This document shows, one piece after another, positions 1 to 21,785 of a stretch of 64,000 nt of DNA; the stretch's first letter is position 1; the number at the start of each line of letters is the position of its first letter. Source of the stretch: Candidatus Oxydemutatoraceae bacterium. GTDB taxonomy: Bacteria > Pseudomonadota > Gammaproteobacteria > Poriferisulfidales > Oxydemutatoraceae. The stretch covers positions 1,824,001 through 1,888,000 of the forward strand of contig OZ244717.1 in the NCBI GenBank assembly GCA_965218975.1, read 5' to 3'. Below the pieces are notes generated by a model that saw only the letters and a program-made list of their open reading frames with translations, made no database searches and was not told where the DNA came from. A program made the translations under genes and the position numbers.

Positions 1-3000
1 TCTTCAATACAACGGAGAAAGATTGATTCCTTTCATAGACTGCGTCGTCAAGCAGCGGAATCGTAATGGTTTGCTCGGTCTCGCCTGCAGCGAACGTCAG
101 CGCTCCGCTCATGGCAACATAGTCCGACCCCGCAAGCGCGCTGCCGTCTTGAGTCCGGTAGTTCATTGTCCAAGAAAATGGTAATTCTATGCTCAGAGTT
201 AGCGTAAGTTCGGCGGCTGAGGCGCCCTCATCCACAGTCGTCTCGCCGGCGACAAAGCGCACTTCCGCTGCATCCCGATCAATGATGCGTACGATGTGCG
301 AGGCGGAATCAATCGTCGCGTTGTTCGCATTGCTCAGACGAACGGTGAACGTTTCCAAAGACTCAAGGAACGGATCGGCTATCAGCGGAATCACAATTGT
401 TTTCTCTGTCTCGCCCGGCGCGAATATCAGCGTTCCGCTCGCAGCCTCATAGTCCACCCCCGCAAGCGCCGTACCGTCCGCAGTCACATAATCCACTGTG
501 ATTGTCTCCTCGCTCACGATCGTCTTTCCACCTGCTTGATCCTTCAACATCAGTTCAACTTCCACCCTACCTCTTTCTTCGACTATGAAAGTAGTCTCTT
601 CGGCAAAACTGATAACCGGCAGATCGTCGTCGGCGACCTCGACCGAGGCGAACACCGGATCAATCAGCAGATAGCCGTTCCCTGCTTCTATTTGCGCGGT
701 GACGGTGCCGGTCGATTCAAACGTTTCATCTGCAGCCGTCTCGACCATCAGTATCGCCTCGGCCTCGTTCGCGGCGAATATGACACTCGTCGGAGGCCTA
801 TACGAATCCTCGCTCCGGATCACTTCACCTTCTTGGCTCACATTGACATTGACGGTCAACGGCACATGCATCAGCGCTATCCGACTTAATCTGAACATCG
901 CAGGCATGCCTTCCGCCACTTGCGCTTTAACCGCCGTCATCTCGATGAGCGGCAGGCTCTCATCCAAATCCGTTACGACAAAGGTAAGCTCCCGCACCGC
1001 CGTCACCGCCCGATCTGCAGCGGTGTGTCCGATCGCCGTTACCGTGACGACATACTCGTTGTTCATCGCGGCATTGATCGGATCCGTGCCGGCGACGTCC
1101 GTCGGATTCTCAAAATCCGGCGCCGTGAAACTCAACTCACCTGTCGCCGGATCAATTTCAAACAACGCTTGATCCGCACCGCCGGTGATTGCATAGCGCA
1201 GGTCTTCCGAGCCCTCTGTAACGAGGCTCACCGTCGTCGTCTGCCTTTCGCCGATAGTGAATCTCTCAAGGGTATCGTTGTCGGCGAGCGTGATTGTTTG
1301 GATCGTATTGTTGCCTAACAGGACGTTCGGGTCGGTCGTGCTCAAATGTATCTCAATCGTCTCGTCTCCCTCCACCGCCGCATCGTCCGTTATTATCAGG
1401 CGGGCTTCAAGTATTCTTTCTTCAAAGCGATGCGGCGCATTGAATGTAAGCGGCAACGCCAACGGATTGCCCGCTATATCCGTGATGACGTAGTCGGCGC
1501 CGAATGTCGCCGTTCCTCCCAACTCAAGCGTCAGCGGATGCCCGCGGTCAATATGACCTATCGTGCGCTGCATCACAATCGACACGGTACTCGCGCTTTC
1601 ACCGACAGAACTCGGCAATCTTCCCAATCTCCAAACCGGCATCCGGCCACCATCAACGATGGTAACCGTCGCTTCGCCTCGATCAATCACGACCGTATCG
1701 GCAGAATCTGCCGCCGTTACAGCGTCAATAACTACCGAAAAGATCTCATCGTCGGGTTCAAAAATGATGTCAGTGGTAATCTGAACCGTCACCGTTTGCG
1801 ACGATTCGGTCACGCCTGCTTCGGGTGAAAAGACAACTCCTGCCATATTGCCAATGCTAAGGCGGGTGTAATCCGAAAGAGTCGCGCTGCCGTCTCGTGT
1901 CAAGACAGTCACAGTCACATCGTCCTGCAGCAGCACACGCCCGGCGCTGATCAGTTTAAGCGTTAGGGTGACTTGCCTGTCTCTTTCAGTGATCGTATAT
2001 TCGCTCGGGTCAAACGTCAGGATGAATACCGCTTCCGCATCGGCATTCGGCGCCGCTGTGACTTCTGCGGTTGTGCCGTTGCCCACCGCGCTGACTGCGC
2101 GCACTTGGAATATGTATGTCATATCATTGGTTAAATCGGATACGATTTGAGCCCTGACCTGACCCGTCGCATCGCCGGCGATGCTCCATTTCTGATCCTC
2201 AATCGTTGCGGTGTCGGTGCTTGCGCGATATTCGTAACGTTCGATCGGTGAAGTGCCGGGGTCGGCAGGCGTATCCCAACTTAGGACCGCGTACGTATCG
2301 CCTGCCTCGGCGGCTAAGTTCGCCGGCGCACCGGCGACGCTGTCGTTGTCGATAATGATGACTGTTAACGTGTCGTTTTCGATACGTGTGGGTCCACCAA
2401 CTCTCTCGTTATCTATGAGGATGAGTTTTAAGCTGAAATCCTCGTTGTCTTCCACTAATAAATCGTCTTTCGTTGAGAACAGCCCTTCTCCGAGATTATC
2501 TCCCTCAATAAAGGAGAGATGAGTAGAACCAGTAGAAAAAAGCGACTCCCCAGTATTCTCCGATATGGATACAATCATGTTTCCCGTATTCTTGAACGTG
2601 AATCGACCTGCGTATCTATATCTGTTCTCATCAAGAAATCTGAAAAGCCCCCTATTTAAGGCACTCAAATCGAACAGATTAAAGGGGGTGTGCCCGGAAT
2701 TATAATCGTAGTCTGCCGGGTCCCGCGCGGTACCGGCGATTATTTCGATTATTACGCCAAATACACCGCCAATGGGTGGCCGTTCGTCACGGTCGGTCGT
2801 GCAGGAAATAATAGGCATGTAATTCTCGCCCTCGATGACTTCGATACGCGTCGTCACAAAGCCACAAACCGCCTCGGGAAAGTCAACATTCAACACGGTA
2901 GTTTCCGCTCTTGCCGCTGTCGGTGCAATCATATAATCCGCGCTAGGCAACAGCGTCGCAGTCAGCGTCGTATCCGGATTCCATCCGATGATCGGCTCAT

Positions 3001-9000: not shown

Positions 9001-12000
9001 TTAACGTTTCTATCAGCACATAGACCGCCGGGGCACTGCCCTCGCGGACGACAATCGCGTCTTCTTCGAGGGCAACTATCGATGCGATATCATCTATATT
9101 CCTTACCAAAGTGCGCGCACTCGCCCGTGTCGGCGAAACGTCATAGTCCGCGCCGGGCAATAGCTCTGCGATGATCGGCGTATGCGGATTCCACTGACCC
9201 TGCATCCGGCCGGTAGTGACGACACGCAGCTCTGTCGTCGCCGCATCGCCGACAAATCGCAGCGTGTACGTGACGAATCCGTCCGCGTCGCCATCCGCCA
9301 GCACGCGATGCTCATCCGCCGGTTCCGACACCCGTACTGTTACGCCGCGCAGATCCGTCGCCGTATCCGCACTGCTGCGGCGCAACGTGAAAACAATAGG
9401 GCGGAGACCGGTGTCTAATTCATTTATCTCAGATCTGGCCGCGGAAATCGATACGACCGGAAAGGCCTCGATCGGCAAGCGCGCCAACGCGGGAGCGTTC
9501 GGCGCAACTAGATTGACTGCGCGCGGCGCGGCGCGGGGGGCAAACAACTGCGCATCGATAAAAGTGATTTCGCCGCTGAATACGTCCGCGGCAAGACCGA
9601 CGGTCAAAGTTCCGCTCGTCGTTGCCGTTAGTGTGACGGTCTGCGTCGTCGGGCGCTGTGATTCCGTCGACGGCATCAGAAAACGCGCTTCAATCGACTC
9701 GCCTTCCTGCAATCGGTTCTCTCCTGCCGGTGCTACCGTGACCTCGGTCGAAGCGCTGCTATGCAACAACACGCGCTCCGGCGTCTCGCCGTTCGGGAGT
9801 TTGAACACCACGCCGAAGTCGTTGTCGATAATGATGACCGTTATCGTTCCGTTCTCGACGCGTACTATGTCATCATGCCGGGCGACATAACTTAGGATGA
9901 AATCTTCGGGCCCCTCTGCTAATAAATCATCTTCCGTTGAAAGAAACCCTTTTTTATTAGGGTTGCCTTCGAAGTCAAGAAAAGAGACTATAGCATTATT
10001 CCGCCTAACCACACTGGGATCTTCCACCGATCTGACCACAACATCGTCCCCTGTGTTCTCAACCGTGAATTCATCTCGATAGCGGAATCCGTCTTCGGTG
10101 TTACCCCGACGACGGGTACCCCGAGTGGGTATGTCTATTGGGGTACCGCCAAAAGAAATTGCCGCGCCGTAATCATAATCGCTCGGTGCCATTGCGCTAC
10201 CGTCGTCGAAATTAATATCTCCAAATATAGCGGTTAACGGTCGTTGATCAAGATCGGTCTCGAGAAAGCCTCGGAGCATATAATTCTCGCCTTCAATGAC
10301 TTCGATGCGCGTCGTCGTAAAACGAATCACCATCGCGGGGGGGTCATCGGAACTATTGAGCACGTGAAACTGCACGCTTGCCGCGGTCGGCGCAATCGTA
10401 TAATCCTCGCTAGGCAACAGCGTCGCAGTCAGCGTCGTGCCAAGATTCCATCCGGAAATTGGCTCAACATCAATACGAATTGCTGTCTCCTGCGTAACAC
10501 CGTCGTCGAAGACTACGGTGCGCGACGTAGCGCCCGTCAGCTGCTCGCCGGCCAATTCCACTATGACTTCCAATTGCCCGGCACTGTCCGTGCGCCGCAG
10601 ATCGAAAAAGGAATCAAGGTCCTCTACACGAAAAAGACCTTCGCCAAAGGGAAAAATCCCGACTGTCGGCACGATGTCAATCGGCAGCGCAAGCGTGACT
10701 GTCGTCTCCGACGAATCAATGGCCCTCGCAGTCAAGGTGCCGGTGTTCGCGTTAATTGCCACGGTCAAAGTCAGCTGCGCCGATCGCTGATCGCGAGTGA
10801 ACGTCGCTGTCGGCGGTTCAATCGTCACGCCCCTGCCGGTGTAGGAAAATTCCACCGTCAGACGCTCGTCTTCGCTCAGCATCGGCATACCCAACGGTGT
10901 CTTGATACCGACCAAAGATACATCAATCGTCGCCGAATCGCCGCTTGCGATCAGCGACAAGCGGTCGAACGTGGATTCCAGCGCAAACTCGCGACCGACA
11001 ATTTCCACCGGCAATGCCGCCGACTCGACTGTTGCGATCGTCTCATCCGGCGGCGCACCTCTAAGCGCCGCAGTCAGCGTGCCGGTGGTGCCGCCGACAT
11101 CAAACGCTGCATCCAAACGCAGCTGCGCCGTCGGTGCGCCGGCGGTAAACGTTAGCTCAGACGGCGTAATCGTGACGCCCTCGCCCGTGTAAGAAAACGC
11201 TACCGTCAAACGCTCGTCTGCGCCTAGCGTCGGCGTGCTCGACGGCGCGACTGCGATCCCGGTCAAAGACACATCAATCGTCGTCGTGCCGCCCGCCATC
11301 ACCGTTTGATCCTCGCCGTCAAAGCTCAAACGGAAGCGGCGCGCGACGGTCTCCACCATCAGCGGAGCTGTGGATCGGGATACGGTGAATCCGTCCGGCG
11401 ACATTACCTCGGCGATCTTGACCTCGCCGGTGCGCAAACCGATATCATGCGGCGCACTGATTGTAAACGTTGCGCGCGGCATCGTGCGGCTGAGCGTCAA
11501 CTCGGACGGGTCCAATTCAAACTCCGACGATTCCAATTGCACCGTAACGACGCCGGCTGTCGTCGGTAACGAAGCCTCGTTTTGCAATATCAGCCGCGCC
11601 TCCACCGAGGCGCCGACGGTGACTTCAGCGGTCGATGCCGCAAATGCGACGCCGATATCGTTATCAATTATAGAACTACTGTCCCCAAACGACTCAAGAA
11701 TCGTGAAATCCGGGCCCGACTTGGTCGTCGGTTTATACGTAAGTATTTCTCCCACTTCGACGATGTCATCATCTATAAACGTTATACGAATCGGCTCGGC
11801 AAATCTTTCGCCGGCCGGTAAACGGAGTACCGGCGGCGGCGTCAAGAGGGCGTCCGTCGTCGCATCTGTCAGTATGTAATCTTCGCCGAACGTCGCCGTC
11901 CCGGATAACTCCAACGTAACCTCTATATCCCGCGGAAGCAAATCGCCTTCTAACTGTATGGCAAACATCCCCGCAACCCCTTCTCTGAAGCTGTTGTCAC

Positions 12001-15000
12001 CGCTAGGGAAAGAGGGGGTAACAAGCACAGAAGGCTTCTCCTCGTCATCAATGATCGTCACTGTCGCTTCGAGGTTAGGGCTAAAGCTAAAAACCATATT
12101 ATCGACTATAACCTCATCATTGGAATGCGGCGCCGATACGTCGGAAATAAACAGCGAAAAACTCTCGTCCCTTTCAAAGAACGCATCTTCGACGGCGGTC
12201 AGCGAGATCAGCATGAAATCATTAACCTCGCTTCCCGCAGGAAAAGTTACCGTTTGCTCGAAAGTATAATCTTCGGCAGTTGCGCTGCCGGCGCGCGCCG
12301 ATACCGCCACGATGATTTCGCCGTTGGTAACAGCAGGACTCTCAGAGTTCAGAATAATCCGAACCTCCGTGTCTTCACCTTCATTCACCGTATAAGCGGG
12401 CGCATCAAACGCCATACGGTAGAGCATCCGGGAGCTGCGCTGTGTCACCGTCGTTCGCGCTGCTGCGCCGGCGCCCGCCGCGCTGACCGCACGCACTTCT
12501 ATGAGGATCTCCTGATCGAAGATGGGAAAATTTAGGCGCCCAAAAAAGCCGGGCACCGTAAACCCAGACCAGCTTAAAAAAGTAATTCCGTCGTCGTCGC
12601 TGATGCGAAATTCGTAATGATCAATCGGCGCAGTGCCCGGATCAGTGGCCGCGTCCCACTCCAGAAATACTCCGGCCGAGTGCCCTACCGCCGTCAGGTT
12701 CTCGGGCGCGCCCGGCACTATGTCGTTGTCCACCACTGTCGACGTCGCTTCGCCGAGGACACCGATCTCGGCATGCGATACGGTCAATGTCGTCTGTTTG
12801 CTTTCCTCAAATACCGGATCGTCCGTGAACGTCAGGAAAAACGTTACCGCGCGGTTCAGCATAGTTCGAACCGAATCGCCCGCCGTAGGCATCGTCGTCC
12901 CACTCGCCGGAAGCGTCAGCCAAAACGGCGGTTGCAGAAGATTGCCGCCTTCATCCGCCACTGTATAGTCGCCCGGAAACTCCGCGTCCTGAGCATCAAT
13001 CGTAAGAGTAAATACTTGATCCTCTTTAAAGCCGTTTTCGCTGCGCACCGTGACCGCTATCACTTCCCCTTCGTCAATCTCCTCCTCGCTGAACTCGAGC
13101 GAAAAAGAAGTTGAGGAAACAGCGGCATCCGCTTCAATGGTTATTTCGGCGCGATCATCAGAGTCCCCGTCAAGTACATCCTGCGGGTCCGAAAACACTA
13201 CCTCGCTGACAACCAACGAAAAAGTCTCCGCATCTTCGATAATGAGGTCATCTCTGATGCGAATTTCAAGATTTTGCGCTTGCGGTGTTTTATCCTGATG
13301 GCCTACCGCTTCGGGCAAAAAAACAAGCGGCACGGCATCCAAGGCAATATAGTCCGCCGGTGCAGTCGCGCTGCCGTCATTCGTCGAGAAAAAGAGCGTA
13401 ATAGCACCGCGCGGCGGGGAGACACCAGGGAGAAAACTCCCTTCCGATAAGGAAACACTAAAAGATATCACTTCGGCGCTTTCATCAACGGTGGTGGGAA
13501 CGTCAAGCGCCACGATAAAAGGCCTCACATTCCTCCAAGACTGAGTGAGTCGCGCGACTGCGCCGGCGCCCTCTGCGCTGACCGCGCGCACTTCGAAAGT
13601 GTTCTCACCTTCGCTCAGATTTATTTCCACCGCCAGCGTGGCACCGACGTCGGTCCAATCCGGACCCCAAGTCGTCCCGCCGTCGCGGCTGACGCGATAC
13701 TCGTAACGGTTGATCGGCGCGGTGCCGGCATCGAAAGGCGCGGTCCAAATCAGTTCCGCTATATCAAAAAGGATTCCCCTCAACCGCAAGCCCGTCGGCG
13801 CGGTCGGCACGGTCGGCGTCTCAACAATCCGCGCACTCGCGCCGTTGCCCGCTGCATTGACTGCACGTACCTCAAAGGTGTACCTCGTGCCGATGTCCAG
13901 ACCCGATAAAAGTTGTAGCGGGGCAGGCCCGAAGAGATCCATGTCAAATGGTAGCTCATCGCTAATGTAGTCCCAATCCGGGTCCCAAGTACTTCCGTCG
14001 TCGTTGCTGTAGCGAAACTGATAAGTTTCCAACGGCGTGCTGCCGAAATAAAGAGGCGCGTCCCATGCCAATAGCCACAGATCAACGCCTTCTTGTTGAG
14101 ACACCTGCGGATCAATGCGAGAGAATCTCAAATTCCGCGGCGCGTCGGGAGGGAAGTCGTTGTCGGCAACCTGCACCGTGGCGCTGCCTTGACCCGGATC
14201 AACGATGTATCTATCTCTGGGGGTAAGGGAAATCGTTATCGAGAACGGCTTGGCGTTAGCGATCGAGTCGTCGAGAATGGGAATGCTGAGCATCATGCTT
14301 GCTTCGGAGGCGAGAAAAGTAAACTCCGGCGCTTCCACAATGTTCGGCAAGCTGCCAGCAACTAATAATCTGCTAAAATCATTATCGGGTACGGACAGGC
14401 TGAGCTCTACGGTCAACTCCGCGCTGACATCCCCCATCCTCGTCACCGTGAACACGGCAGATTCGCCCTCGGTTACAAGCGCTCGGGGCGACACGATTGA
14501 CACAAAGGGACCGCCGTCCACAAAGACATCGGGAAAATCCCGCGCCGAATTGGAAAGGTCAATCGGGGTGTCGTCGGCAGAAACAATGGCAACCCCGGCT
14601 CCGCCGCGGTGCCCCATGTCTATATCGCCGTCTTGCGCCAACGTGTTTTGCGTGACACCGATGCCGTCATCGTCAAAGACGTCCGCTTCAACCGTATAGG
14701 CGAATATCAGCGTATCGCTGCCGCTGCCGCGAACGTAACGCGCCGTTCTCGGGCCGCCGATATTCAGCTCGGTCAGCGGCACGCCGGTTACAGTCACTGT
14801 CTCGTCGAACATCAGCGCCACTTCAATCATCTCGTCGAAAAAGTAGGTGTCCCTCGATGCCGGTTGCGATACGATATTGATGTCAATGATTGCAGGCGCA
14901 GTCTGAGCGTGGGCAGGTTCAGCATAGACCGAAGCAATCAATACGGCCAACAGACACAAACCGAAGGAAAAACTTTGCGCGCGCGACAACGCTCGGGAGC

Positions 15001-15016
15001 AACAAAACTTCAACAT
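1..15016 (-). CDS. Giant secreted surface protein/adhesin (>=5000 aa, C-terminus beyond left edge) with Calx-beta, fibronectin type III and cadherin-like repeats
   Basis: Hand translation from ATG 15016 gives MLKFCCSRALSRAQSFSFGLCLLAVLIASVYAEPAHA|QTAPA (Sec signal-like); in-frame alternative ATGs at 15092 and 15140. The same frame reads PLLDDAVYERNQSFSVVLK at the left edge. FN3 motifs (WDAP..YxFEVRAVNAAG) at about 13540-14150, 12430-12720 and 2050-2340; cadherin-like ALFEIDPATGELSF..PDFENP at about 970-1260; many IIDND/DDxxxEGDE Calx-beta motifs. Its absence from the ORF track is consistent with no stop inside the window, but not every codon was checked. Confidence 0.88.
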   Translation of the reverse strand, partial: MLKFCCSRALSRAQSFSFGLCLLAVLIASVYAEPAHAQTAPAIIDINIVSQPASRDTYFFDEMIEVALMFDETVTVTGVPLTELNIGGPRTARYVRGSGSDTLIFAYTVEADVFDDDGIGVTQNTLAQDGDIDMGHRGGAGVAIVSADDTPIDLSNSARDFPDVFVDGGPFVSIVSPRALVTEGESAVFTVTRMGDVSAELTVELSLSVPDNDFSRLLVAGSLPNIVEAPEFTFLASEASMMLSIPILDDSIANAKPFSITISLTPRDRYIVDPGQGSATVQVADNDFPPDAPRNLRFSRIDPQVSQQEGVDLWLLAWDAPLYFGSTPLETYQFRYSNDDGSTWDPDWDYISDELPFDMDLFGPAPLQLLSGLDIGTRYTFEVRAVNAAGNGASARIVETPTVPTAPTGLRLRGILFDIAELIWTAPFDAGTAPINRYEYRVSRDGGTTWGPDWTDVGATLAVEINLSEGENTFEVRAVSAEGAGAVARLTQSWRNVRPFIVALDVPTTVDESAEVISFSVSLSEGSFLPGVSPPRGAITLFFSTNDGSATAPADYIALDAVPLVFLPEAVGHQDKTPQAQNLEIRIRDDLIIEDAETFSLVVSEVVFSDPQDVLDGDSDDRAEITIEADAAVSSTSFSLEFSEEEIDEGEVIAVTVRSENGFKEDQVFTLTIDAQDAEFPGDYTVADEGGNLLQPPFWLTLPASGTTMPTAGDSVRTMLNRAVTFFLTFTDDPVFEESKQTTLTVSHAEIGVLGEATSTVVDNDIVPGAPENLTAVGHSAGVFLEWDAATDPGTAPIDHYEFRISDDDGITFLSWSGFTVPGFFGRLNFPIFDQEILIEVRAVSAAGAGAAARTTVTQRSSRMLYRMAFDAPAYTVNEGEDTEVRIILNSESPAVTNGEIIVAVSARAGSATAEDYTFEQTVTFPAGSEVNDFMLISLTAVEDAFFERDESFSLFISDVSAPHSNDEVIVDNMVFSFSPNLEATVTIIDDEEKPSVLVTPSFPSGDNSFREGVAGMFAIQLEGDLLPRDIEVTLELSGTATFGEDYILTDATTDALLTPPPVLRLPAGERFAEPIRITFIDDDIVEVGEILTYKPTTKSGPDFTILESFGDSSSIIDNDIGVAFAASTAEVTVGASVEARLILQNEASLPTTAGVVTVQLESSEFELDPSELTLSRTMPRATFTISAPHDIGLRTGEVKIAEVMSPDGFTVSRSTAPLMVETVARRFRLSFDGEDQTVMAGGTTTIDVSLTGIAVAPSSTPTLGADERLTVAFSYTGEGVTITPSELTFTAGAPTAQLRLDAAFDVGGTTGTLTAALRGAPPDETIATVESAALPVEIVGREFALESTFDRLSLIASGDSATIDVSLVGIKTPLGMPMLSEDERLTVEFSYTGRGVTIEPPTATFTRDQRSAQLTLTVAINANTGTLTARAIDSSETTVTLALPIDIVPTVGIFPFGEGLFRVEDLDSFFDLRRTDSAGQLEVIVELAGEQLTGATSRTVVFDDGVTQETAIRIDVEPISGWNLGTTLTATLLPSEDYTIAPTAASVQFHVLNSSDDPPAMVIRFTTTRIEVIEGENYMLRGFLETDLDQRPLTAIFGDINFDDGSAMAPSDYDYGAAISFGGTPIDIPTRGTRRRGNTEDGFRYRDEFTVENTGDDVVVRSVEDPSVVRRNNAIVSFLDFEGNPNKKGFLSTEDDLLAEGPEDFILSYVARHDDIVRVENGTITVIIIDNDFGVVFKLPNGETPERVLLHSSASTEVTVAPAGENRLQEGESIEARFLMPSTESQRPTTQTVTLTATTSGTLTVGLAADVFSGEITFIDAQLFAPRAAPRAVNLVAPNAPALARLPIEAFPVVSISAARSEINELDTGLRPIVFTLRRSSADTATDLRGVTVRVSEPADEHRVLADGDADGFVTYTLRFVGDAATTELRVVTTGRMQGQWNPHTPIIAELLPGADYDVSPTRASARTLVRNIDDIASIVALEEDAIVVREGSAPAVYVLIETLNAGQQPNSLTFLAVSAFPGSAGSPSDYGIFSDLVPFPIESYMPFDDGAGQKYRSRVNAIAPDRKPHVTKRDGLAEGDEDYEFILELSPGQGGNVMFGRDKVRVTIIDNDYAAVFTDPRTREVFAVPPDAIFRSPSGERFEHGEVLAGATRELGVMLVGPNELRSGESIVARFLVPSPESSAPVVQEVTFTQEAPSAMLEVGAPYNAPSTLKVSFSDARLFTDGDFTDNVALVAPVAPEFRDNNSANGEVRASTPAFLILDVIFDREFILTFEPELQAVDAGGAATVSLSLSGNETSLGTSMLGEDERLTAEFFYTGEGVAAQPVTFTAERTTVEVRLNAALTATGGVITAAFADASSITATPGSGKLEVAINPAVGIFAARPRIDEGDDLVFDLQRTDSGDELAVMVRVTEPADDNRVLVSDPTDSPTGESAHTVSFAQGAMTAQLRIATVDDEVWEAHAPVTATLLLESDYLIAPAASSTTVEVSDNDFAATTVRPQHDAQAAREIDGTVAIPIIIAMDNPGEVNHRALTLSVEPASGEATLGADFSGFIEEIVVWPADYTLSADGRYEAIVAASVEIIDDFLIEARESFTVDIRLSPADARLKLTAADSVVTITIIDNDQVVFGLSQDQPIATGDAARALAVASTQVYVMLRDPKSIAAQQEVLVTLDSAEFGLDKTELVLTAAQPSAVFTIHVPYAAATGEITATAELSGEEAVIFLTPLPVEVIEREFTLRFAMLEQAVAAGGSTPVSLILFGEPTMFGDSMLGEGEQLTVEFFYTGRGVAAEPVVFTAASMSVEAHLNAALDATDGTLIAAAAEATNATVTSTRVPVDIVTLPLISISAASAVVNEGEEIVLMLTRTVLPDAELTVDMEITETGGDRIAAVDKRRRTIPFAADEKERMVAVATLSDLTIDFDSLVRAALLPGGVSYAVSSTRGATEVTVSETNEAELSLLIEPNSVVEGDGRVVTLRVGIDNNVTFAADQTIMFDFRGGSAVRRDDFRVNKDTLTLRGGERESVDYITITVINDTQIEGTERIEIKALLNGAEVARGSLDIENDDMAMLVFDRTSIDVTEGDTAMFRVNVLPIGNCTIPYLVIVAFEYDDSGGVLTGNPPAEARLAPCDRSFSIDLPTHDDTIISGDRSVTVNAIFEATEQVRFDPPLSLPITVRDDESLEVGVTFVTPSSNPLDTAQPRTAQVLANGATDVQVRLWNPHLLEADDRVEVGLTATEVALLQSEFVLTQSEPSAMLTISAPYDAPASGEVALNAELVKVDGTREDITFTSSSLAVEVVAREFTLTFAEGSAGIEIFSDAPRLIVPAGGSQRFGLSLTPKETPLGVPILDAAERLAVDLGYTEDGVTVSPVTFDASRMTDESRLSATTAARSGEITVTLVGTASNITIETIEPRLDVRISSYLWISTATPEVQEGDDVVFTLQRADRGGSLILFVEVSEPADSNSVFNPNAELSFSVILADGEMMTEFRVPTADDEAWEADTIITAAMPEAVVGFITLVPTALTATALVTDNDVPDLTVRFASQTGSLIPPENLSPDEGVLIRVVEGDSYVTGKVLSETARNERPNGSFGMLLVTTGEERTVVGIDLVDIDLTFTVAPASFRVVDTAGEERYRSLIDLSAAGGDFRILDDFLAEGDETFFLNLVQPRDTPAGVAIGSPGHLEVVIIDDDYGVVFANSRGEILERAQVLASAATTELTVMLKDPARLRAGELIVARFLVPSSESPVPVTEEVTFAPAVLGATPSATLEIGAPYAVAPAAVSFVDADLLSDGVLTRAVYLVAPVAPEFRDGNENNGEVYTSSHAFLPVEAVAREFALESAEERLSLIAGGVSESFDLSLSPIETPLGIPTLGEDEVLTVAFSYTGEGVTIKPSTTTFTQGDSLELIFVEAAIDATTGTLTATVIDTPNAVVELELPIDIVPTVGIFTRMKSIKEPSGDLGSHESFRVHRTNSAGRLEVKVELAGRQLVGSTPRTVIFADGESEKDVFVEYEPIIGWNPDTTLTATLLPSADYMIAPTAARAETTVLNVDFPEAVCGFVTTRIEVIEGENYMPIISCTTDRDERPPIGGVFGVIIEIIAGTARDPADYDYNSGHTPFNLFDLSALNRGLFRFLDENRYRYAGRFTFKNTGNMIVSISENTGESLFSTGSTHLSFIEGDNLGEGLFSTKDDLLVEDNEDFSLKLILIDNERVGGPTRIENDTLTVIIIDNDSVAGAPANLAAEAGDTYAVLSWDTPADPGTSPIERYEYRASTDTATIEDQKWSIAGDATGQVRAQIVSDLTNDMTYIFQVRAVSAVGNGTTAEVTAAPNADAEAVFILTFDPSEYTITERDRQVTLTLKLISAGRVLLQDDVTVTVLTRDGSATLSDYTRLSIGNMAGVVFSPEAGVTESSQTVTVQITTDIIFEPDDEIFSVVIDAVTAADSADTVVIDRGEATVTIVDGGRMPVWRLGRLPSSVGESASTVSIVMQRTIGHIDRGHPLTLELGGTATFGADYVITDIAGNPLALPLTFNAPHRFEERILEARLIITDDAAVEGDETIEIHLSTTDPNVLLGNNTIQTITLADNDTLERFTIGERQTTTVSLVTEGSEDLRYAITGGADQALFEIDPATGELSFTAPDFENPTDVAGTDPINAAMNNEYVVTVTAIGHTAADRAVTAVRELTFVVTDLDESLPLIEMTAVKAQVAEGMPAMFRLSRIALMHVPLTVNVNVSQEGEVIRSEDSYRPPTSVIFAANEAEAILMVETAADETFESTGTVTAQIEAGNGYLLIDPVFASVEVADDDLPVISFAEETTFIVEERGRVEVELMLKDQAGGKTIVSEETITVDYVTADGTALAGVDYEAASGTLIFAPGETEKTIVIPLIADPFLESLETFTVRLSNANNATIDSASHIVRIIDRDAAEVRFVAGETTVDEGASAAELTLTLSIELPFSWTMNYRTQDGSALAGSDYVAMSGALTFAAGETEQTITIPLLDDAVYERNQSFSVVLK

Positions 15017-15327
15017 CTTGTCAATAAACCGCAATGCCCACCAAGCCGAAAATACGCTCAAGGGCCCGCTTGACGTTTGCGCAGTAAAACATTCGCAGTC
15101 GCTCATTCTGCAAACGACTCTCGGCGCCGCCGACTGCCATTATATACGGCATTATGTTCACGCTTACATTCATGTTGAAAAATCAGCACCGGTATTGAAC
15201 CCAATACTTCGTTCGCAATTTAATTTTGTGTGCGATCGGCCTTGCTTTCGCATGAGTATGAGTAATGTTTATGAATCCGAATTATTTTACAGACTTTAGC
15301 ACATGTGTTTAATGTCAGTCAACAAGA

Positions 15328-15418
15328 TGTACGATACCACCCTAAATGGGATTCTTGAAGAGCTTCCGGGGAAGCATTCGGCAGTAACATTCGGATCGGT
15401 GCTTTCTGTCCGTTGCCG
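15328..15418. repeat. 91-bp dispersed non-coding element, copy 1 (upstream of giant adhesin)
   Basis: About 91% identical (8 mismatches by eye) to 38332..38422. Confidence 0.9.
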
Positions 15419-15614
15419 ACATGAGGACGGTGCATAGCGTGCGGCTTCATAACTTACGAGTACCAACTGTAAACCCCCTAAATGCTCATCGAGTCAATTC
15501 AAATCCGTAAACAATCGTCCCGCATTATCATGCGCAAAACCTTGCCGCGGCGGCGCAGCTGAGACGCTCAGGCCGAACCGGCGGCGGCAAATATAAATTC
15601 CGACAAATAAAAGC

Positions 15615-15860
15615 TTAACTAGTAAATCTTAAGGCTAGAAATAATACAGAATTAAAAATGCCGACAGTAATAATTATCCGCCAAGTCAAACGCATTTCTA
15701 ATTCGGCTATTTTAGCCGCTATTTTAGATTCAAGTTTCGCCAAATCCCCTTTGGTTACGACGTCGTCCGTATGCGCGATGGTGTCGGCGGCGGCGCGCGC
15801 TTCCGCCTCGGTCGCATCCGGAATGCGGCGGAACAAGTTGTATAGGTCTATCGCGCTCAT
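15615..15860 (-). CDS. Small coiled-coil protein with C-terminal TM helix (DUF1640/CCDC90-like), array unit 1, 81 aa
   Basis: MSAIDLYNLFRRIPDATEAEARAAAD...TKGDLAKLESKIAAKIAELEMRLTWRIIITVGIFNSVLFLALRFTS. Start placed at the ATG shared with paralogs rather than the track's 15977. Confidence 0.8.
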   Translation of the reverse strand: MSAIDLYNLFRRIPDATEAEARAAADTIAHTDDVVTKGDLAKLESKIAAKIAELEMRLTWRIIITVGIFNSVLFLALRFTS

Positions 15861-16222
15861 GTCTTCAGTATAACCGATTGCGAAGACATAAACTACCCCA
15901 TGTATAAGTCCATAACATTCGGCACGGAGTTGCCGACTCAAACCGGCACGCGGTCGGTGCATAGCGTGCGGCTTCATAATTTACGAGTACCAACTGTAAA
16001 CCCCCTAAACGCTCATCGAGTCAATTCAAATCCGTAAACAATCGTCCCGCATTATCATGCGCAAAATCTTGCCGCGGCGGCGCAGCTGAGACGCTCAAGC
16101 CGAACGTTCGGCGGCGGACATTTCGGATCGGTCAAGCAAGGCACCAACATGCGCACGGGGGATCAAGACGTCATTGTGCAGGGAAAAAACCGGCGGCAAA
16201 AATAAGTCAGACAAATAAAAGC

Positions 16223-16447
16223 TTAACTAGTAAATCTTAAGGCTAGAAATAATACAGAATTAAAAATGCCGACAGTAATAATTATCCGCCAAGTCAAACG
16301 CATTTCTAATTCGGTTAATTCCATTTTTAAATCCGCTTTGGTTACGACGTCGTCCGCATGCGCGATGGTGTCGGCGGCGACGCGCGCTTCCGCCTCAGTC
16401 GCATTCGGAATGCGGCGGAACAAGTTATATAGGTCTATCGCGCTCAT
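16223..16447 (-). CDS. Small coiled-coil/TM protein, array unit 2, 74 aa
   Basis: Paralog of unit 1; TKADLKMELTELEMRL; RFTS C-terminus. Confidence 0.8.
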   Translation of the reverse strand: MSAIDLYNLFRRIPNATEAEARVAADTIAHADDVVTKADLKMELTELEMRLTWRIIITVGIFNSVLFLALRFTS

Positions 16448-16728
16448 GTTTTCAGTATAACCGATTGCGAAGACATAAACTACCCCATGTATAAGTCCAT
16501 AACATTCGGCACGGCGTCATCAACCCAAACCGGTATACGGTCGGTGCATAGCGTGCGGCTCCATATTTATGAACGTCAACTGTAAACCCCCTAAAACGCT
16601 CATCGAGTTAATTCAAATCCGTAAACAATCGTCCCGCATTATCATGCGCAAAATCTTGCCGCGGCGGCGCAGCTGAGACGCTCAGGCCGAACCGGCGGCG
16701 GCAAATATAAATTCCGACAAATAAAAGC

Positions 16729-16941
16729 TTAACTAGTAAATCTTAAGGCTAGAAATAATACAGAATTAAAAATGCCGACAGTAATAATTATCCGCCAAGT
16801 CAAACGCATTTCTAATTCGGCCAAATCCGTTTTCGTCGCGACGTCGTCCGCATGCGCGATGGTGTCGGCGGCGGCGTGCGCTTCCGCCTCGGTCGCATCC
16901 GGAATGCGGCAGAACAAGTTGTATAGGTCTATCGCGCTCAT
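16729..16941 (-). CDS. Small coiled-coil/TM protein, array unit 3, 70 aa
   Basis: Paralog with the shortest coil (TKTDLAELEMRL); RFTS C-terminus. Confidence 0.8.
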   Translation of the reverse strand: MSAIDLYNLFCRIPDATEAEAHAAADTIAHADDVATKTDLAELEMRLTWRIIITVGIFNSVLFLALRFTS

Positions 16942-17260
16942 GTCTTCAGAATAACCGATTCCGAAGACATAAACTACCCCATGTATAAGTCCATAACATT
17001 CGGCACGGCGTTGTCAACCCAAACCGGTATACGGTCGGTGCATAGCGTGCGGCTCCATAATTTACGAGTACCAACTGTAAACCCCCTAAACGCTCATCGA
17101 GTCGATTCAAATCCGCAAACAATCGTCCCGCATTATCATGATCATCATGCGCAAAACCTTGCCGCAGCGGCACAGCCGAGACACTCAAGTCGAATGTTCG
17201 GCAGCGAATATTTCGGATCGGGCAAGCAAGGCGCCGACATGCGCACGAGGGATCAAGACG

Positions 17261-17512
17261 TCATCGCGCGGAGAAAAAACCGGCGTAGGCAAACATTAAA
17301 CCGACCGCACCGATGACCGTGCCGATAATAACACTGGCAACAATAATCATTCGCCAAGTCAAACGCATTTCTAATTCGGCTAATTCCATTTTTAAATCCG
17401 CTTTGGTTGCGACATTGCCCACATGCGCGATGGTGTCGGCGGCGACGCGCGCTTCCGCCTCGGTCGCATCCGGAATGCGACGGAACAAGTTGTATAGGTC
17501 TATCGCGCTCAT
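17261..17512 (-). CDS. Small coiled-coil/TM protein, array unit 4, 83 aa
   Basis: Paralog with the second C-terminal type (IIVASVIIGTVIGAVGLMFAYAGFFSAR). Start placed at the conserved ATG. Confidence 0.8.
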   Translation of the reverse strand: MSAIDLYNLFRRIPDATEAEARVAADTIAHVGNVATKADLKMELAELEMRLTWRMIIVASVIIGTVIGAVGLMFAYAGFFSAR

Positions 17513-17829
17513 GTCTTCAGAATAACCGATTTCGAAGACCGAAGACATTGTGTACGGGTCCGATATATTGCGGATTCTTTAAGGCGGCTTGGAATCAACA
17601 TCCGGTATGCGATCGGTGCATAGCGTGCGGCTCCATAATTTACGAGTACTAACTGTAAACCCCCTAAACGCTCATCAAGTCAATTCAAATCCGCAAGCAA
17701 TCGTCCCGCATTATCATGCGCAAAATCTTGCCGCGGCGGCGCGAGCGAGACGCTCAAGCCGAACGTTCGGCGGCAGGCATTTCGGATCAGTCTGCCGAAG
17801 CGTTGATATGTGCGCGGGGGATCAAGACA

Positions 17830-18102
17830 TCATTGTCCGGAGAAAAAACCGGCAGAGGCAAACATGAGCCCCATTGCGCCGATGATGATTCCAGCTAGCG
17901 CCACCATCCATTTAATCAATTCGACTTTAAGTTCTGCCATTTTAGATTCAAGTTTCGCCAAATCCACTTTGGTTGCAAATTCGCTCAGGTCGTCTTTAGT
18001 AACGAACTTATCCGTATCAACCAAGTCTTCGACAGCTTTTTCTGCGAGCGCTTCCGCAGCGCCAGCTTGAATCAATGCTTTGTAAAGTGCGGTGGTGCTC
18101 AT
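17830..18102 (-). CDS. Small coiled-coil/TM protein (DUF1640-like), array unit 5, divergent N-terminus, 90 aa
   Basis: MSTTALYKALIQAGAAEALAEKAVE...FATKVDLAKLESKMAELKVELIKWMVALAGIIIG. The ATKxDL..ELK.ELIKW pattern resembles DUF1640 proteins. Confidence 0.82.
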   Translation of the reverse strand: MSTTALYKALIQAGAAEALAEKAVEDLVDTDKFVTKDDLSEFATKVDLAKLESKMAELKVELIKWMVALAGIIIGAMGLMFASAGFFSGQ

Positions 18103-18416
18103 GTTTTCAGTATAACCGATTTCGAAGACATTGTGTATGGGTCCGATATATTGCGGATTCTTTAAGGCGGCTTGGAATCAACATCCGGTATGCGATCGGT
18201 GCATAGCATGCGGCTCCATAATTTACGAGTACTAACTGTAAACCCCCTACCTAAACGCTCATCGAGTCAATTCAAATCCGCAAGCAATCGTCCCGCATTA
18301 TCATACGCAAAACCTTGCCGCGGCGGCGCAGCTGAGACGCTCAAGCCGAACGTTCGGCGGCAGGCATTTCGGATCAGTCTGCCGAAGCGTTGATATGTGC
18401 GCGGGGGATCAAGACA

Positions 18417-18656
18417 TCATTGTCCGGAGAAAAAACCGGCAGAGGCAAACATTAAACCGACCGCACCGATGACCGTGCCGATAATAACACTGGCAACAAT
18501 AATCATTCGCCAAGTCAAACGCATTTCTAATTCGGCCAAATCCGTTTTCGTCGCAACATCGTCCGTATGCGCAACGGTATCCGCGGCAGCGCGCGCTTCC
18601 GCCTCAGTCGCATTCGGAATGCGGCGGAACAAGTTATATAGGTCTATCGCGCTCAT
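18417..18656 (-). CDS. Small coiled-coil/TM protein, array unit 6, 79 aa
   Basis: Paralog; MSAIDLYN N-terminus with FFSGQ C-terminus. Confidence 0.8.
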   Translation of the reverse strand: MSAIDLYNLFRRIPNATEAEARAAADTVAHTDDVATKTDLAELEMRLTWRMIIVASVIIGTVIGAVGLMFASAGFFSGQ

Positions 18657-18988
18657 GTTTTCAGCATAACCGATTCCGAAGACATAAACTACCCCATGTA
18701 TAAGTCCATAACATTCGGCACGGCGTTGTCAACCCAAACCGGTATGCGGTCGGTGCATAGCGTGCGGCTCCATATTTATGAACGTCAACTGTAAACCCCC
18801 TAAACGCTCATCAAGTCAATTCAAATCCGTAAACAATCGTCCCGCATTATCATGCGCAAAATCTTGCCGCGGCGGCGCAGCTGAGACGCTCAAGCCGAAC
18901 GTTCGGCGGCGAATATTTCGGATCAGTTTGCCAAAGCGTTGATATGTGCGCGGGGGATCAAGACGTCATTGTCCGGCGGCGACGGAAC

Positions 18989-19558
18989 CTACTGGTAAAT
19001 AATTTCAACCCGGCGGTTTTTACTAAATGCTGCTTCGTTATTGCCGAATATCGCAGGTTTTTCCTCGCCAAAGCTGATGGTGGACAGCTGATTGGCGGGA
19101 ACTCCGTAAAACAATAAAATCCCTTTCACCGCTTGCGCGCGTCGTTCTCCGAGCGCAAGGTTGTAACCTTCCGACCCACGTTTATCCGCATGTCCTTCCA
19201 GCATCGCGAACACATCCGAATTTTTTTTCAGATATTCGCCGTGCTGACGAATCAACTCATCGCCTTGGGCACTGATATCCGAACGATTGAAATCGAAATA
19301 AATGATGTTGTAACGCAAAGACGGATTTTGCTCGATCGCATCTTGGTACACCTTATTCTCGCCGAGGGCAGCGTCGTTGCCGTACAAATCTTCAACGGTG
19401 CCGGCAACGCCTTCGGGATAAATCGTTGCGTCCGCGGCAGCGGGTGAACCTCCGTTCAAGGTTGCCGGTGTCTCCTCCGTCATCTGTGTAGATGCACATG
19501 CAACGAGCAACATAGCGGCAAAAACGTTAAAGATTGTTTGGGTAAGTCTTGAATTCAT
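18989..19558 (-). CDS. pal: Peptidoglycan-associated lipoprotein Pal (OmpA_C domain)
   Basis: Lipobox LLVAC; IYFDFNRSDI, EGHADKRGSEGYNLALGERRA, SFGEEKP, KNRRVEI. Start at ATG 19558 follows a GAGG SD. Confidence 0.9.
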   Translation of the reverse strand: MNSRLTQTIFNVFAAMLLVACASTQMTEETPATLNGGSPAAADATIYPEGVAGTVEDLYGNDAALGENKVYQDAIEQNPSLRYNIIYFDFNRSDISAQGDELIRQHGEYLKKNSDVFAMLEGHADKRGSEGYNLALGERRAQAVKGILLFYGVPANQLSTISFGEEKPAIFGNNEAAFSKNRRVEIIYQ

Positions 19559-19657
19559 AGCGACCTCGTCTGGTTTGTAAACGATAGAACAACACATTCG
19601 TATAAAACAGTATAGAATAGATTTCAAACAGATTATAGCTGCAGGAGGTCCATACTC

Positions 19658-20110
19658 ATGTCAATCAATATTTTGTGTGCCGCATACAATAAACTGCCCG
19701 CAGTCGGCATGTGGGTATCGTTGCTTGGTCTTCGCTTACTCATCGCTTGGGAGTTCTGGGGAGCGGGTATGAAGAAGTTTCACGGAGACAATTGGTTCGA
19801 GTCAATCGTCAACGACTTTCCTTTCCCTTTTAGCATCATCCCCACCGGCATAAGTTGGTTTATCGCGACTTGGACCGAGATCATCGGCTCGATCGCTTTG
19901 CTCATAGGATTCACCACACGGTTTTGGGTTCTGGCTTTGATTATCCTTGACCTTGTCGCTTGGTCGGCGGTACATGCCAATAATGGGTATAACGTTTGCG
20001 ACAACGGGTTTAAGCTACCGCTCATCTATCTTATCATGATGATTCCCCTGCTATTCAGCGGCCCCGGTAAACTGAGTCTGGATCACTTGATTCAATCGGT
20101 ACGTAAATAA
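19658..20110 (+). CDS. DoxX-family membrane protein (HvfX-like, MNIO-cluster associated)
   Basis: LRLLIAWEFW.AG..K, FPFPF, TEIIG..ALLIG..TR, GYNVCDNGFKLP, GPGKLSLD; AGGAGG SD upstream. Confidence 0.85.
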   Translation: MSINILCAAYNKLPAVGMWVSLLGLRLLIAWEFWGAGMKKFHGDNWFESIVNDFPFPFSIIPTGISWFIATWTEIIGSIALLIGFTTRFWVLALIILDLVAWSAVHANNGYNVCDNGFKLPLIYLIMMIPLLFSGPGKLSLDHLIQSVRK

Positions 20111-20112
20111 TA

Positions 20113-21015
20113 ATGTGCCCGCATTCGGAAACGCCATTATCGACACCCACCGCCGACCAAGCGCCGAATCAATCCGCGCGGCGCTATCCGGTCAGCGGCG
20201 GCGGACTCGGTCTGCGGCGCGATTTGCTGAATGAATTGGAAACCCGTCCGGCAGAAGTATCTTTTGTGGAAGCCGCACCTGAAAACTGGATCAATATCGG
20301 CGGCAAGGTCCGCGAACGCTTTGACCGGCTCGTTGCGCATTATCCGCTCATCTGCCACGGCTTGTCTTTGTCTTTGGGAGGGCCGACTGCACTGGACACA
20401 TCGCTGCTGAAACAGATTAAAATTTTTCTGGATACGCATCAAGCACGTTATTACAGCGAGCATCTCAGTGCTTGCACCGGAACAGGCCATCTTTACGACT
20501 TGATGCCGGTCCCGTTTACCGACGATGCAGTCGATTATGTCGCCGCGCGCATCAGGCAGACGCAGGATATTCTCGAACGTAAAATCGCGATCGAAAATAC
20601 ATCGGCTTATCTTGCGCCCGGCAATGAAATGCCCGAAATTGATTTCCTCAATAAAACGCTTGAATCCGCCGATTGCAAACTGCTTTTAGACGTCAACAAC
20701 GTCTATGTCAATTCGGTGAACTTCAACTTTGATCCGATCGCATATCTGCATTCCTTATCTGCCGACCGTATCGCATACTGCCATATCGCCGGGCATAGCG
20801 ACGAAGCCGAAGATTTAATTGTCGATACGCACGGTAGCGACATCATCCCGCCGGTTTGGGATCTGTTGGATGAAACATATAAACGGTTCGGGGTCATCCC
20901 GACACTGCTGGAACGGGATTTCAATTTCCCGCCTTTTGCCGACTTGCTCAAAGAATTGCGCATGATCAATCGATATCAGCAAAGATATTCAACGGCGCCG
21001 CGGCATGCTTCTTGA
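20113..21015 (+). CDS. DUF692 / multinuclear non-heme iron oxidase (MNIO; HvfB/BufB/MbnB-like)
   Basis: GLGLRR, EAAPENW, HGLSLSLG, SEHLS, IAIEN, LLDVNNVYVNSVN, HIAGH, IVDTHG, TLLERD. Confidence 0.92.
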   Translation: MCPHSETPLSTPTADQAPNQSARRYPVSGGGLGLRRDLLNELETRPAEVSFVEAAPENWINIGGKVRERFDRLVAHYPLICHGLSLSLGGPTALDTSLLKQIKIFLDTHQARYYSEHLSACTGTGHLYDLMPVPFTDDAVDYVAARIRQTQDILERKIAIENTSAYLAPGNEMPEIDFLNKTLESADCKLLLDVNNVYVNSVNFNFDPIAYLHSLSADRIAYCHIAGHSDEAEDLIVDTHGSDIIPPVWDLLDETYKRFGVIPTLLERDFNFPPFADLLKELRMINRYQQRYSTAPRHAS

Positions 21016-21785
21016 TGCCGCGCGATTTTCAAACAATACAACTGCAACTTGCCGAACACCTGCGCGATCCGGAAAACAATCCTCCACCCAAGGGACTGGA
21101 ACCGAGACGGCTGGCAATCTATCGCCGCTTATTTTTTAACAATATCGTAAACTTTATTACAAAAACTTTTCCGGTATTAAACAAACTTTATACTGAAAAA
21201 GAATGGCGGCGTCTCGCGCGGTCGTTCTACGCCGGTTATACCAGTCACTCGCCGTACTTCGCGGATATTCCAAAATCTTTTGTCGAGTATCTGAGCGGGC
21301 ATCATAAAATGGAAGAACATGACCCGCCTTTTCTGGTGGAATTGGCCCACTACGAGTGGGCGGAGTTCGCATTGTCGGTCGCCGATCAAACAGTTGATTG
21401 GCAACGGGTTGACCCGAACGGAGACTTGTTTGATCGCTCGCCGCTCTTATCTCCGCTCGCTTGGCGTTTCACTTACCGTTGGCGCGTACATCAAATCAGC
21501 CCGCAATCTCGTCCGCAAACGCCGAATATAAGGCCTACTCATTTAATTCTATGCCGCAGGCGCGACGGTAAAGTGCATTTTATTTTAATCAACGATACGA
21601 CCGCCGCTTTGTGCGAGGAATTGGGGAAAAAACCGGCGCAAACCGGTCGGCAGTCGATAGAAAATATCAGTAAAAAACTTGGCTTGCCGCGAACGCGAAT
21701 GACACTCGAAAACGGCTTGGACTTGTTGGAAAACATGCGCCGCAAGGAAGTGATACTTGGCACCGCTAAGATTGAAACCGGTTGA
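21015..21785 (+). CDS. DUF2063 / HvfC-BufC-like MNIO partner protein
   Basis: FQ..LAEHLRDP, RRLAIYRRLFFNN, FPVL, HSPYF.DIP.SFV.YL, FL.ELAHYEW.E; TGATG coupling to the DUF692 gene. Confidence 0.88.
   Translation: MPRDFQTIQLQLAEHLRDPENNPPPKGLEPRRLAIYRRLFFNNIVNFITKTFPVLNKLYTEKEWRRLARSFYAGYTSHSPYFADIPKSFVEYLSGHHKMEEHDPPFLVELAHYEWAEFALSVADQTVDWQRVDPNGDLFDRSPLLSPLAWRFTYRWRVHQISPQSRPQTPNIRPTHLILCRRRDGKVHFILINDTTAALCEELGKKPAQTGRQSIENISKKLGLPRTRMTLENGLDLLENMRRKEVILGTAKIETG

Follow-up and report, generated by a model that had tools for sequence, protein, structure and literature searches.

In a 64,000-nucleotide (nt) stretch of the single-contig, 2.081-Mb genome of a Candidatus Oxydemutatoraceae bacterium (Gammaproteobacteria; GenBank assembly GCA_965218975.1, contig OZ244717.1, positions 1,824,001 to 1,888,000; hereafter the window), seven copies of a conserved non-coding core alternate with six co-oriented small genes, all on the minus strand. 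With a probability of about 0.7, we read this locus as a tandemly amplified, recombining array of paralogues from a miniature DUF1640/CCDC90-like protein family, under concerted evolution. The array lies at 1,839,415–1,842,988 of the genome and fills the interval between the stop codon of an OmpA-family (Pal-like) gene at window position 18989 and the start of a giant adhesin open reading frame (ORF) at 15106. The 3′-ward order on the minus strand is thus the OmpA/Pal-like gene, the six small genes and the adhesin ORF, and the last ~300 nt of the interval also carry a copy of this genome's 98-bp IS481-derived repeat (IS, insertion sequence). A preliminary description of this DNA had given the same seven cores and six genes, with spacings (527, 587, 494, 578, 583 and 554) that agree with ours within a few bases; its core of ~150 bp, however, is to be corrected to ~175 nt. 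It had also placed the array so as to fill the interval between pal and the adhesin gene, which stands except for the name, the gene in question encoding an OmpA-domain, lipoprotein-like product away from the tol genes.

A repeat search recovered the seven-copy direct-repeat family with starts at 15416, 15943, 16530, 17033, 17602, 18189 and 18738 (start-to-start spacings of 527, 587, 503, 569, 587 and 549 nt), together with a second, six-copy family that has one copy around the start codon of each array gene. Tandem Repeats Finder returned no rows for the array because the repeat period exceeds its 500-nt limit. Each encoded protein has a helical head, followed by a beta-layer motif and a coiled-coil stalk whose length varies, and ends in a single C-terminal membrane helix. 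The head spans ~32 residues and is of two types, type 1 (MSAIDLYNLFRRIP...) in five units and type 2 (MSTTALYKALIQAG...) in unit 5; the C-terminal helix likewise falls into type A (...FNSVLFLALRFTS) in units 1–3 and type B (...GLMFASAGFFSGQ) in units 4–6. Read from the conserved MSAIDLY or MSTTALY start, the proteins of units 1 to 6 measure 81, 74, 70, 83, 90 and 79 amino acids (aa), respectively.

In the order of the genes, the array opens with spacer S6 (18657–18988; core at 18738–18911, IS481-type 25-nt terminal repeat at 18697–18721), which begins with a remnant of the 3′ end of a type-B gene immediately 3′ of the stop codon of the Pal-like gene. Unit 6 (18417–18656) has a type-1 head (MSAIDLY...), the shortest stalk and a type-B helix. 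Spacer S5 (18103–18416; core 18184–18362), with proximal variant Y and no IS repeat, leads into the divergent unit 5 (17830–18102), which carries a type-2 head (MSTTALYKAL...), two beta-layer motifs and a type-B helix. Proximal variant Y recurs in S4 (17513–17829; core 17601–17775), here with a 7-nt duplication, ahead of unit 4 (17261–17512), where a type-1 head is combined with a type-B helix. The core of S3 (16942–17260) contains a 9-nt insertion (core 17023–17206), and the IS481-type 25-mer lies at 16982–17006. Units 3 (16729–16941) and 2 (16223–16447), both with a type-1 head and a type-A helix, are separated by S2 (16448–16728; core 16529–16703, 25-mer 16488–16512). After the type-A stop codon of the unit upstream of it, S1 (15861–16222; core 15942–16116, 25-mer 15901–15925) holds a further type-B 3′-end remnant. 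Unit 1 (15615–15860), with the longest type-1 stalk and a type-A helix, closes the series and is followed by S0 (15107–15614), whose seventh core (15415–15589) has no family gene behind it; beyond this core, S0 contains the copy of the ~98-bp IS481-derived repeat (about 15330–15450) and then the upstream region of the adhesin gene. The reading frames of units 1 and 4 remain open upstream of the conserved ATG, to 15977 (120 aa) and 17548 (95 aa), respectively, and automatic gene calls for these two units may take wrong, longer starts.

Judging from sequence, the array proteins are miniature DUF1640/CCDC90-like proteins, and the resemblance proposed in the preliminary description is borne out by sub-threshold Pfam matches and transitive links. 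Among the six proteins, unit 5 gave the best Pfam score (CCDC90-like, 13.7 bits, E=0.056), with no match at E<=1 for the other five, and CCDC90-like recurred as a sub-threshold match in five of seven close homologues (19.2–25.5 bits). A family profile built from our alignment A1 recovered 2737 cluster representatives at E<=1e-3, of which 116 reach E<=1e-10. CCDC90-like was matched at E<=1e-3 by 12 of the 56 representatives scanned, two of them above the 33.5-bit cut-off (P0100, 33.7 bits; P0161, 39.8 bits), and the array proteins are transitively homologous to proteins that pass the PF07798 cut-off. In the Protein Data Bank, the best sequence match of the family profile was Tcar0761's alpha/beta coiled coil (5apz), at a non-significant E=0.055. 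In the Atlas, unit 5 falls among unnamed clusters, 8 of its 30 nearest clusters being in the set with PF07798 on 22% of members, and an NCBIfam scan returned nothing near any cut-off. The array proteins share with DUF1640/CCDC90-like proteins (PF07798; MCUR1, CCDC90B) the helical head, the beta-layer at the start of the stalk and the single C-terminal membrane helix; they differ in their length of 70–90 aa against a 175-position profile, in their high copy number (23 per 2 Mb) and in their tandem arrangement. A 2019 paper in Structure reportedly presents MCUR1 and CCDC90B as a family conserved in prokaryotes. To our knowledge, a scaffold function within the DUF1640 family has been established only for mitochondrial members, and we know of no function for the prokaryotic DUF1640-like proteins. 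The titles and abstract openings of the DUF1640 papers listed hold nothing on symbiont arrays, and literature searches for prokaryotic CCDC90B with its head domain and for tandem coiled-coil paralogues in sponge symbionts gave nothing relevant among the papers listed.

The motif [V/F]-[A/V]-T-K-x-D is found at residue 33/34 in all six proteins, with a second motif at residue 42 in unit 5, and V replaces A at its second position in four of them. According to Hartmann et al. (eLife 2016, PMC4786415), [aliphatic]-A-T-K-[polar]-[DE] is the consensus of the beta-layer in trimeric alpha/beta coiled coils and is placed at the start of the DUF1640 stalk. The array products are indeed small proteins with a C-terminal transmembrane helix, as previously described, whereas their supposed 'TKxDL heptads' are this beta-layer motif of alpha/beta coiled coils. 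Tcar0761, too, repeats ATKxD beta-layer motifs within a trimeric coiled coil; unlike that protein, with its 14 consecutive nonads and no membrane anchor described, each window protein carries one or two motifs, with more in relatives.

One C-terminal hydrophobic 19-mer is present in each of the six proteins (Kyte–Doolittle 1.97–2.56; hydropathy calculation only), and the hydropathy maximum of any 10-mer within the first 30 aa is at most 1.19, which leaves the proteins without a signal peptide or N-terminal hydrophobic stretch on this measure. Lysine and arginine residues number three before the membrane helix against zero or one after it. Given the lack of a signal peptide, the exclusively C-terminal anchor and this charge distribution, the positive-inside rule predicts tail anchoring in the inner membrane and a cytoplasmic location of head and stalk. 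Since the stalk is predicted to be cytoplasmic, antigenic variation, one of the roles suggested earlier, is unlikely; the other two, phage exclusion and a secretion-accessory role, are conjectural. A three-copy model of unit 5, built with alignment A1, yielded a parallel, in-register bundle with an interaction prediction score from aligned errors (ipSAE) of 0.65 (runs 0.64, 0.67 and 0.65), the best of three controls reaching 0.00. Its partner pLDDT (predicted local distance difference test) was at least 77 and its contact agreement at least 96%, with contacts at 43-43, 51-51, 55-55 and 62-62. In calibration, 20 of 30 solved pairs reached the mark applied to such models, as did 1 of 23 single chains; that calibration was made on two copies rather than three. 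The array proteins thus modelled probably form a parallel homotrimer; the pass may also reflect likeness, trimeric coiled coils being common among solved structures.

Comparison of the units with one another indicates how the array has evolved. Over the first 117 nt, unit 5 is 38–42% identical to its neighbours, and the cores flanking it are 87–95% identical to the others, in agreement with the earlier observation that the spacer stays conserved around this divergent unit. Unit 5 and its neighbours are homologous as far as the first two codons and again over the ~56 nt that precede the stop codon, and the coding body of unit 5 is closest in nucleotide sequence to the last unit of a second array in the same genome (77.6% over 263 nt). 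The type-A tails of units 1–3 are 100% identical over their last 90 nt, with heads 91–95% identical. Variants of the core, of the proximal region, of a four-codon 'KMEL' insertion and of the anchor type show an incompatible distribution among the units, such that no single tree fits. In pairs among units 1–4, the synonymous divergence (dS) over the first 117 coding nt is 0.075–0.165 and the Jukes–Cantor distance of the upstream core is 0.085–0.132; the core has therefore diverged as much as silent sites, which matches the expectation for neutral tandem duplicates. Because the coding bodies of units 5 and 6 are far more diverged than their homogenised flanks, we favor gene conversion and module shuffling: the divergence pattern indicates unequal exchange and gene conversion among repeats, with apparent homologous swapping of coding bodies between subfamilies. 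The preliminary description had proposed to set spacer divergence against synonymous divergence, equality pointing to ordinary neutral duplication. The outcome is divided, the two being equal in units 1–4 and the core far less diverged for units 5 and 6. Its picture of a diversifying, recombining array that varies in length agrees with these mosaic features and with the excess divergence of the two coding bodies over their flanks.

The array is one of many sites of this family. Searches with tblastn recovered 23 family clusters in the genome, among them the second array (1,806,113–1,808,845, plus strand), located 31 kb from the first and outside the window. Of its seven starts, two belong to truncated copies (32 and 28 aa), and a partial copy precedes the series; its units alternate in head and anchor type, and its spacers of 44–376 nt are different from, and shorter than, those of the window. 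A profile search across the source genome and 40 relatives found the family in 23 of the 41 genomes, with up to 37 matches per genome. By lineage, matches occurred in 13 of 18 genomes of the same taxonomic family and in 9 of 11 of one of two sister families, against 0 of 10 of the other sister family and 0 of 1 of a fourth family. A combined pattern and tblastn scan of species-representative genomes further identified 19 loci in five metagenome-assembled genomes (MAGs), namely a Nitrospirales bacterium, two Candidatus Oxydemutatoraceae, a Gammaproteobacteria bacterium and a Candidatus Poriferihabitaceae. Eleven of these 19 loci contain two to seven adjacent family genes, and stalk repeats differ widely in number. 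In the Nitrospirales MAG there are 15 family matches, and 16 of the 31 genomes around it (itself included) match, mostly more distantly. A link of these lineages to sponges is suggested, on weak grounds, by the name Poriferihabitaceae and by the occurrence of 'Oxydemutator' in a sponge-holobiont paper.

The genomic context of the family differs between genomes, the neighbors including NQR, glycolysis genes, ClpB, a lipid A acyltransferase and IS transposases. Large surface proteins adjoin family genes in three places—a PKD/autotransporter protein (locus L029), a cadherin-domain protein with an autotransporter (L020) and the window adhesin—and, such genes being frequent in these genomes, no conclusion is drawn from the adjacency. 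In the arrays of the Gammaproteobacteria MAG OZ242192 (L021 and L029), a G+C-rich hairpin repeat (ccctctccc...gggagaggg) follows each stop codon and rve-type transposases flank the arrays, which makes these another case of family arrays in repeat-rich DNA. Within each foreign array the spacers are near-identical, as in the 221–222-nt gaps of L022, and the window spacers have no match in any of 24 related loci. As the foreign spacers are alike within arrays and unrelated to those of the window, the conserved spacer is a property of each local amplification rather than of the family.

In the window array, the core measures 174–184 nt in all seven spacers, with pairwise identities of 87–95% and a mean of 91% (MAFFT alignment and column counts), well above what chance would give. 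Within the genome, the full core is confined to the array, and a genome search returned, outside it, one partial copy at 71% identity together with short IS-end pieces. This partial copy (1,126,353–1,126,442, plus strand) includes proximal variant Y; it is located upstream of tRNA genes and has no intact family gene as its neighbor. The 25-mer in the spacers has 28 copies in the genome at up to four mismatches, four of which are those of S1, S2, S3 and S6. At 1,205,790, the C-terminus of a decayed rve-type transposase (FYNTQRP...) reads into the 25-mer, which is therefore taken as the terminal repeat of decayed, putatively IS481-type elements. A blastn search with one decayed IS copy also revealed a ~98-bp hairpin repeat unit, linked to decayed IS481-type elements, at hundreds of sites across the genome. 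Directly downstream of an IS terminal repeat at another locus (L014), a ~74-aa ORF (MSGIDLDSVGNS...) occurs at about 1801150–1801350 on the minus strand, and we presume that it resembles a type III secretion needle subunit.

A segment of ~25 nt before the ATG, (g/a)aatcgg(c/t)-TAnnnT-gaaaac-ATG, is conserved across both arrays and several single copies, and no Shine–Dalgarno sequence is found at the usual distance before the family ATG. TAnnnT occupies exactly −12..−7 at 16 of 20 paralogue starts, compared with 35 of 1471 long ORFs across the genome, a count that does not amount to a statistical test, the paralogues being related. In the second array, five units have the hexamer as TATAAT; in the window array its forms are TATACT, TATTCT or TATGCT. 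Since the geometry of this −10-like hexamer puts the start at the A of the ATG, each unit is probably transcribed alone as a leaderless mRNA. Unit 5 is the only one with a good −35 box, in a promoter-like TACACA-17-TATACT at 18137–18109; spacer S0 contains two further promoter-like sites, at 15322–15293 and 15311–15284.

The array anatomy, family relationships, copy numbers and mosaicism that we observe would be explained by growth through unequal crossing-over of a ~550-bp unit in which the gene is accompanied by its 3′ flank, the ~175 nt of intergenic DNA, the remnant of an IS481 end and a short promoter-proximal stretch. Gene conversion would then have homogenised the non-coding flanks, with coding bodies swapped or kept from different subfamilies to give two heads, two anchors and a variable number of stalk repeats, and the conserved core would be mostly hitch-hiking intergenic DNA. 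Each unit would be expressed by leaderless transcription from the TAnnnT at −12..−7, and the products would be tail-anchored inner-membrane trimers with head and stalk facing the cytoplasm. By analogy with mitochondrial MCUR1 and CCDC90B, we infer for them a possible role as scaffolds or spacers.

Several observations weigh against this account. No window protein reaches the gathering score of PF07798 (best 13.7 against 33.5 bits), and dN/dS among the heads ranges from 0.12 to 1.11 on ~28 silent sites, too few to claim constraint or positive selection, so that protein constraint within the array is weakly shown. Most units have no −35 box to accompany the −10-like hexamer, and in a consensus scan promoter-like sites were no more frequent than in shuffles (9 against 5.1 +/- 2.6). 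No short-read contig spans the array; contigs break throughout it and at its edges, and the unit count rests on the single-contig assembly. Further points concern the core, which in pairs with unit 6 (dS 0.36–0.49) and unit 5 (saturated) stands at a distance of 0.047–0.105 and stays 87–95% identical in all seven copies even beside these two units. Furthermore, its seventh copy lies ~400 nt upstream of the adhesin start with no family gene, and the diverged partial copy elsewhere in the genome precedes tRNA genes, both of which hint at a function of the core's own. In view of the divergence of units 5 and 6, selection on the core remains the main rival reading, unlikely as we judge it: the core would be a functional cis element under purifying selection, whether a regulator platform, an UP/activator site or a small-RNA template, that co-regulates the units and the adhesin gene. 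Its divergence in units 1–4, equal to that of synonymous sites, and the unrelated spacers of arrays in other genomes argue otherwise. Within window positions 14800–19800, the core had no Rfam match at E<=1, and sigma-70 and terminator consensus scans found no site recurring in it. A structured-RNA reading was rejected because the spacer folds no better than shuffles (z=+1.42; 94 of 100 shuffles equal or surpass it) and the covariation term of the core alignment is unfavourable (+1.24). The small upstream ORF in the spacer (MEPHAMHRP...) and the antisense ORFs do not preserve their frame across copies, and the spacer was treated as non-coding.

The remaining alternatives assign the repeats a more specific mobile or antagonistic nature, or none at all. 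That the units are toxin-like or phage-related membrane modules (akin to type I toxin-antitoxin repeats, XhlA-type lysis accessories or exclusion proteins), tandem copies serving as dosage or specificity variants against phages, is very unlikely, despite some points of likeness. Small membrane-anchored genes in ~550-bp direct repeats recall the long direct repeats (LDR) of Escherichia coli, which likewise place a small membrane-protein gene and conserved non-coding DNA in ~500-bp direct repeats. The LDR (ldr/rdl) are type I toxin-antitoxin loci, and the Ldr peptides are ~35 aa long, toxic and paired with an antisense RNA. In contrast, the array proteins of 70–90 aa place ~50 hydrophilic coiled-coil residues before the anchor, unlike a hydrophobic toxic type I peptide of <60 aa. 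The array gave neither an Rfam antitoxin match nor, in consensus scans, a recurrent pair of antisense promoter and terminator. A phage link is suggested by phrog_17872 (function unknown), to which unit 5 is matched with E=5.2e-5 and relatives in the family with 1e-9 to 1e-10, and by sub-threshold matches to XhlA (PF10779, of the PBSX prophage lysis module), a small protein that also combines an N-terminal coiled coil with a C-terminal anchor, in 2 of the 56 representatives and 2 of the seven close homologues; the best scores among relatives are 23.9 bits (P0061) and 20.5 bits (P0048) against a gathering cut-off of 34.7 bits. However, no window protein matches XhlA at E<=1, and no holin or endolysin neighbors the array. 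A DUF1640 ORF is tabulated on small Col plasmids in PMC13516913. Against these links, PADLOC gave no match for four of the five window proteins scanned (the fifth at E=0.041), none of 29 N-terminal-pattern matches in a viral contig collection was confirmed, and the neighbors of the family in other genomes are mostly housekeeping genes. Still less credible is a mobile, integron-like or otherwise site-specific cassette array with the core as recombination site, close to the repeat-bounded cassette system first proposed for this locus. The regular alternation of a conserved element with short co-oriented genes is shared with integron cassette arrays, and unit 5 resembles different cargo between the same flanks. 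The 'cargo', however, is of one family, unit 5 included, and the resumption of its homology within the coding sequence (last ~56 nt) fits homologous, not site-specific, exchange. As was correctly noted earlier, no integrase is nearby: there is no tyrosine recombinase, intI-type or other, within ~246 kb, the nearest of six PF00589 matches genome-wide being at 1,592,576–1,593,070. No attC-like imperfect palindrome of ~60–140 nt was found, spacer S1 having only four inverted repeats of 10–15 nt, and an invariant 21-nt stretch of the core had no match in the metagenome contig collection. Nowhere else in the genome does the core flank a cargo gene, contrary to what the cassette proposal would lead one to expect, and with no Rfam, folding, covariation or attC signal and unrelated spacers elsewhere, that proposal is not supported. 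An assembly artefact, the true locus having one or two units, is equally far-fetched. Public contigs do break at the array edges, none spanning it, but the stretch is present in six public runs from two studies, and contigs of four runs, from both studies, contain unit-specific pieces at 99–100% identity (e.g., 16087–16239, 17074–17316 and 17836–18168). The units differ by 5–13% and by indels, so they are not collapsed copies of one sequence, and equivalent arrays occur in other complete single-contig genomes; the run data thus speak against an artefact, with the unit count resting on the assembly.

Minor variation was also seen in the runs. Runs X2 and X5 share a 7-nt insertion at 18122 (upstream of unit 5) that equals the duplication found upstream of unit 4 in the window, and an 18-nt insertion at 16506 occurs in run X5 only. 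Three low-depth joints in X5 (depth 3.9, sides of 35–41 nt) would allow another arrangement of units; they are too weak and were not used.

If the locus is a recombining paralogue array as we propose, it offers a clean example of concerted evolution, with homogenised flanks around diverged coding bodies, that can pass for a cassette system. About 1% of the genes in this 2-Mb genome belong to the family, whose recombining arrays vary mainly in stalk length; these natural length variants form a defined set that may serve as a handle on DUF1640-like proteins. For annotation, family genes of 70–90 aa fall below the Pfam cut-off and are easily missed or mis-started. A bolder extension, which we consider distinctly doubtful, is that the arrays constitute an adaptive library, driven by recombination, of stalk lengths and of head and anchor combinations, whose homo- or heterotrimers act as graded cytoplasmic 'rulers' or scaffolds. 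Under that extension, host-associated lineages that live together (several gammaproteobacterial families and the Nitrospirales MAG) would have amplified the family independently or exchanged it. Often located beside giant adhesin or autotransporter genes, the family might serve their assembly or envelope organisation, and the homogenised core would be kept for promoting unequal exchange and coordinated expression.

The two genes bordering the array are both on the minus strand. Downstream, the giant adhesin-like ORF (2–15106) runs off the window after at least 5035 aa; its first 1670 aa match Calx-beta (E=4.4e-17) and fn3 (E=1.5e-11), and the probable start is MLKF... near 15016. Upstream, the OmpA-family (Pal-like) lipoprotein gene (18989–19627; Pfam OmpA E=3.8e-18) probably has its true start at the ATG of MNSRLTQ... 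near 19558. It is not adjacent to tol genes and has a divergent DoxX gene upstream. Orthologues of the Pal-like gene at 42–56% identity were found in all 11 same-family relatives searched, with no family gene within 10 kb of them among the matches listed. The DoxX gene belongs to a plus-strand set at 19658–21785, in which it is followed by an MbnB/TglH/ChrH-type enzyme for the modification of ribosomally synthesized and post-translationally modified peptides (RiPPs; E=6.6e-99) and then by a DUF2063/NGO1945-type protein, an arrangement that looks like a known RiPP-type gene set.

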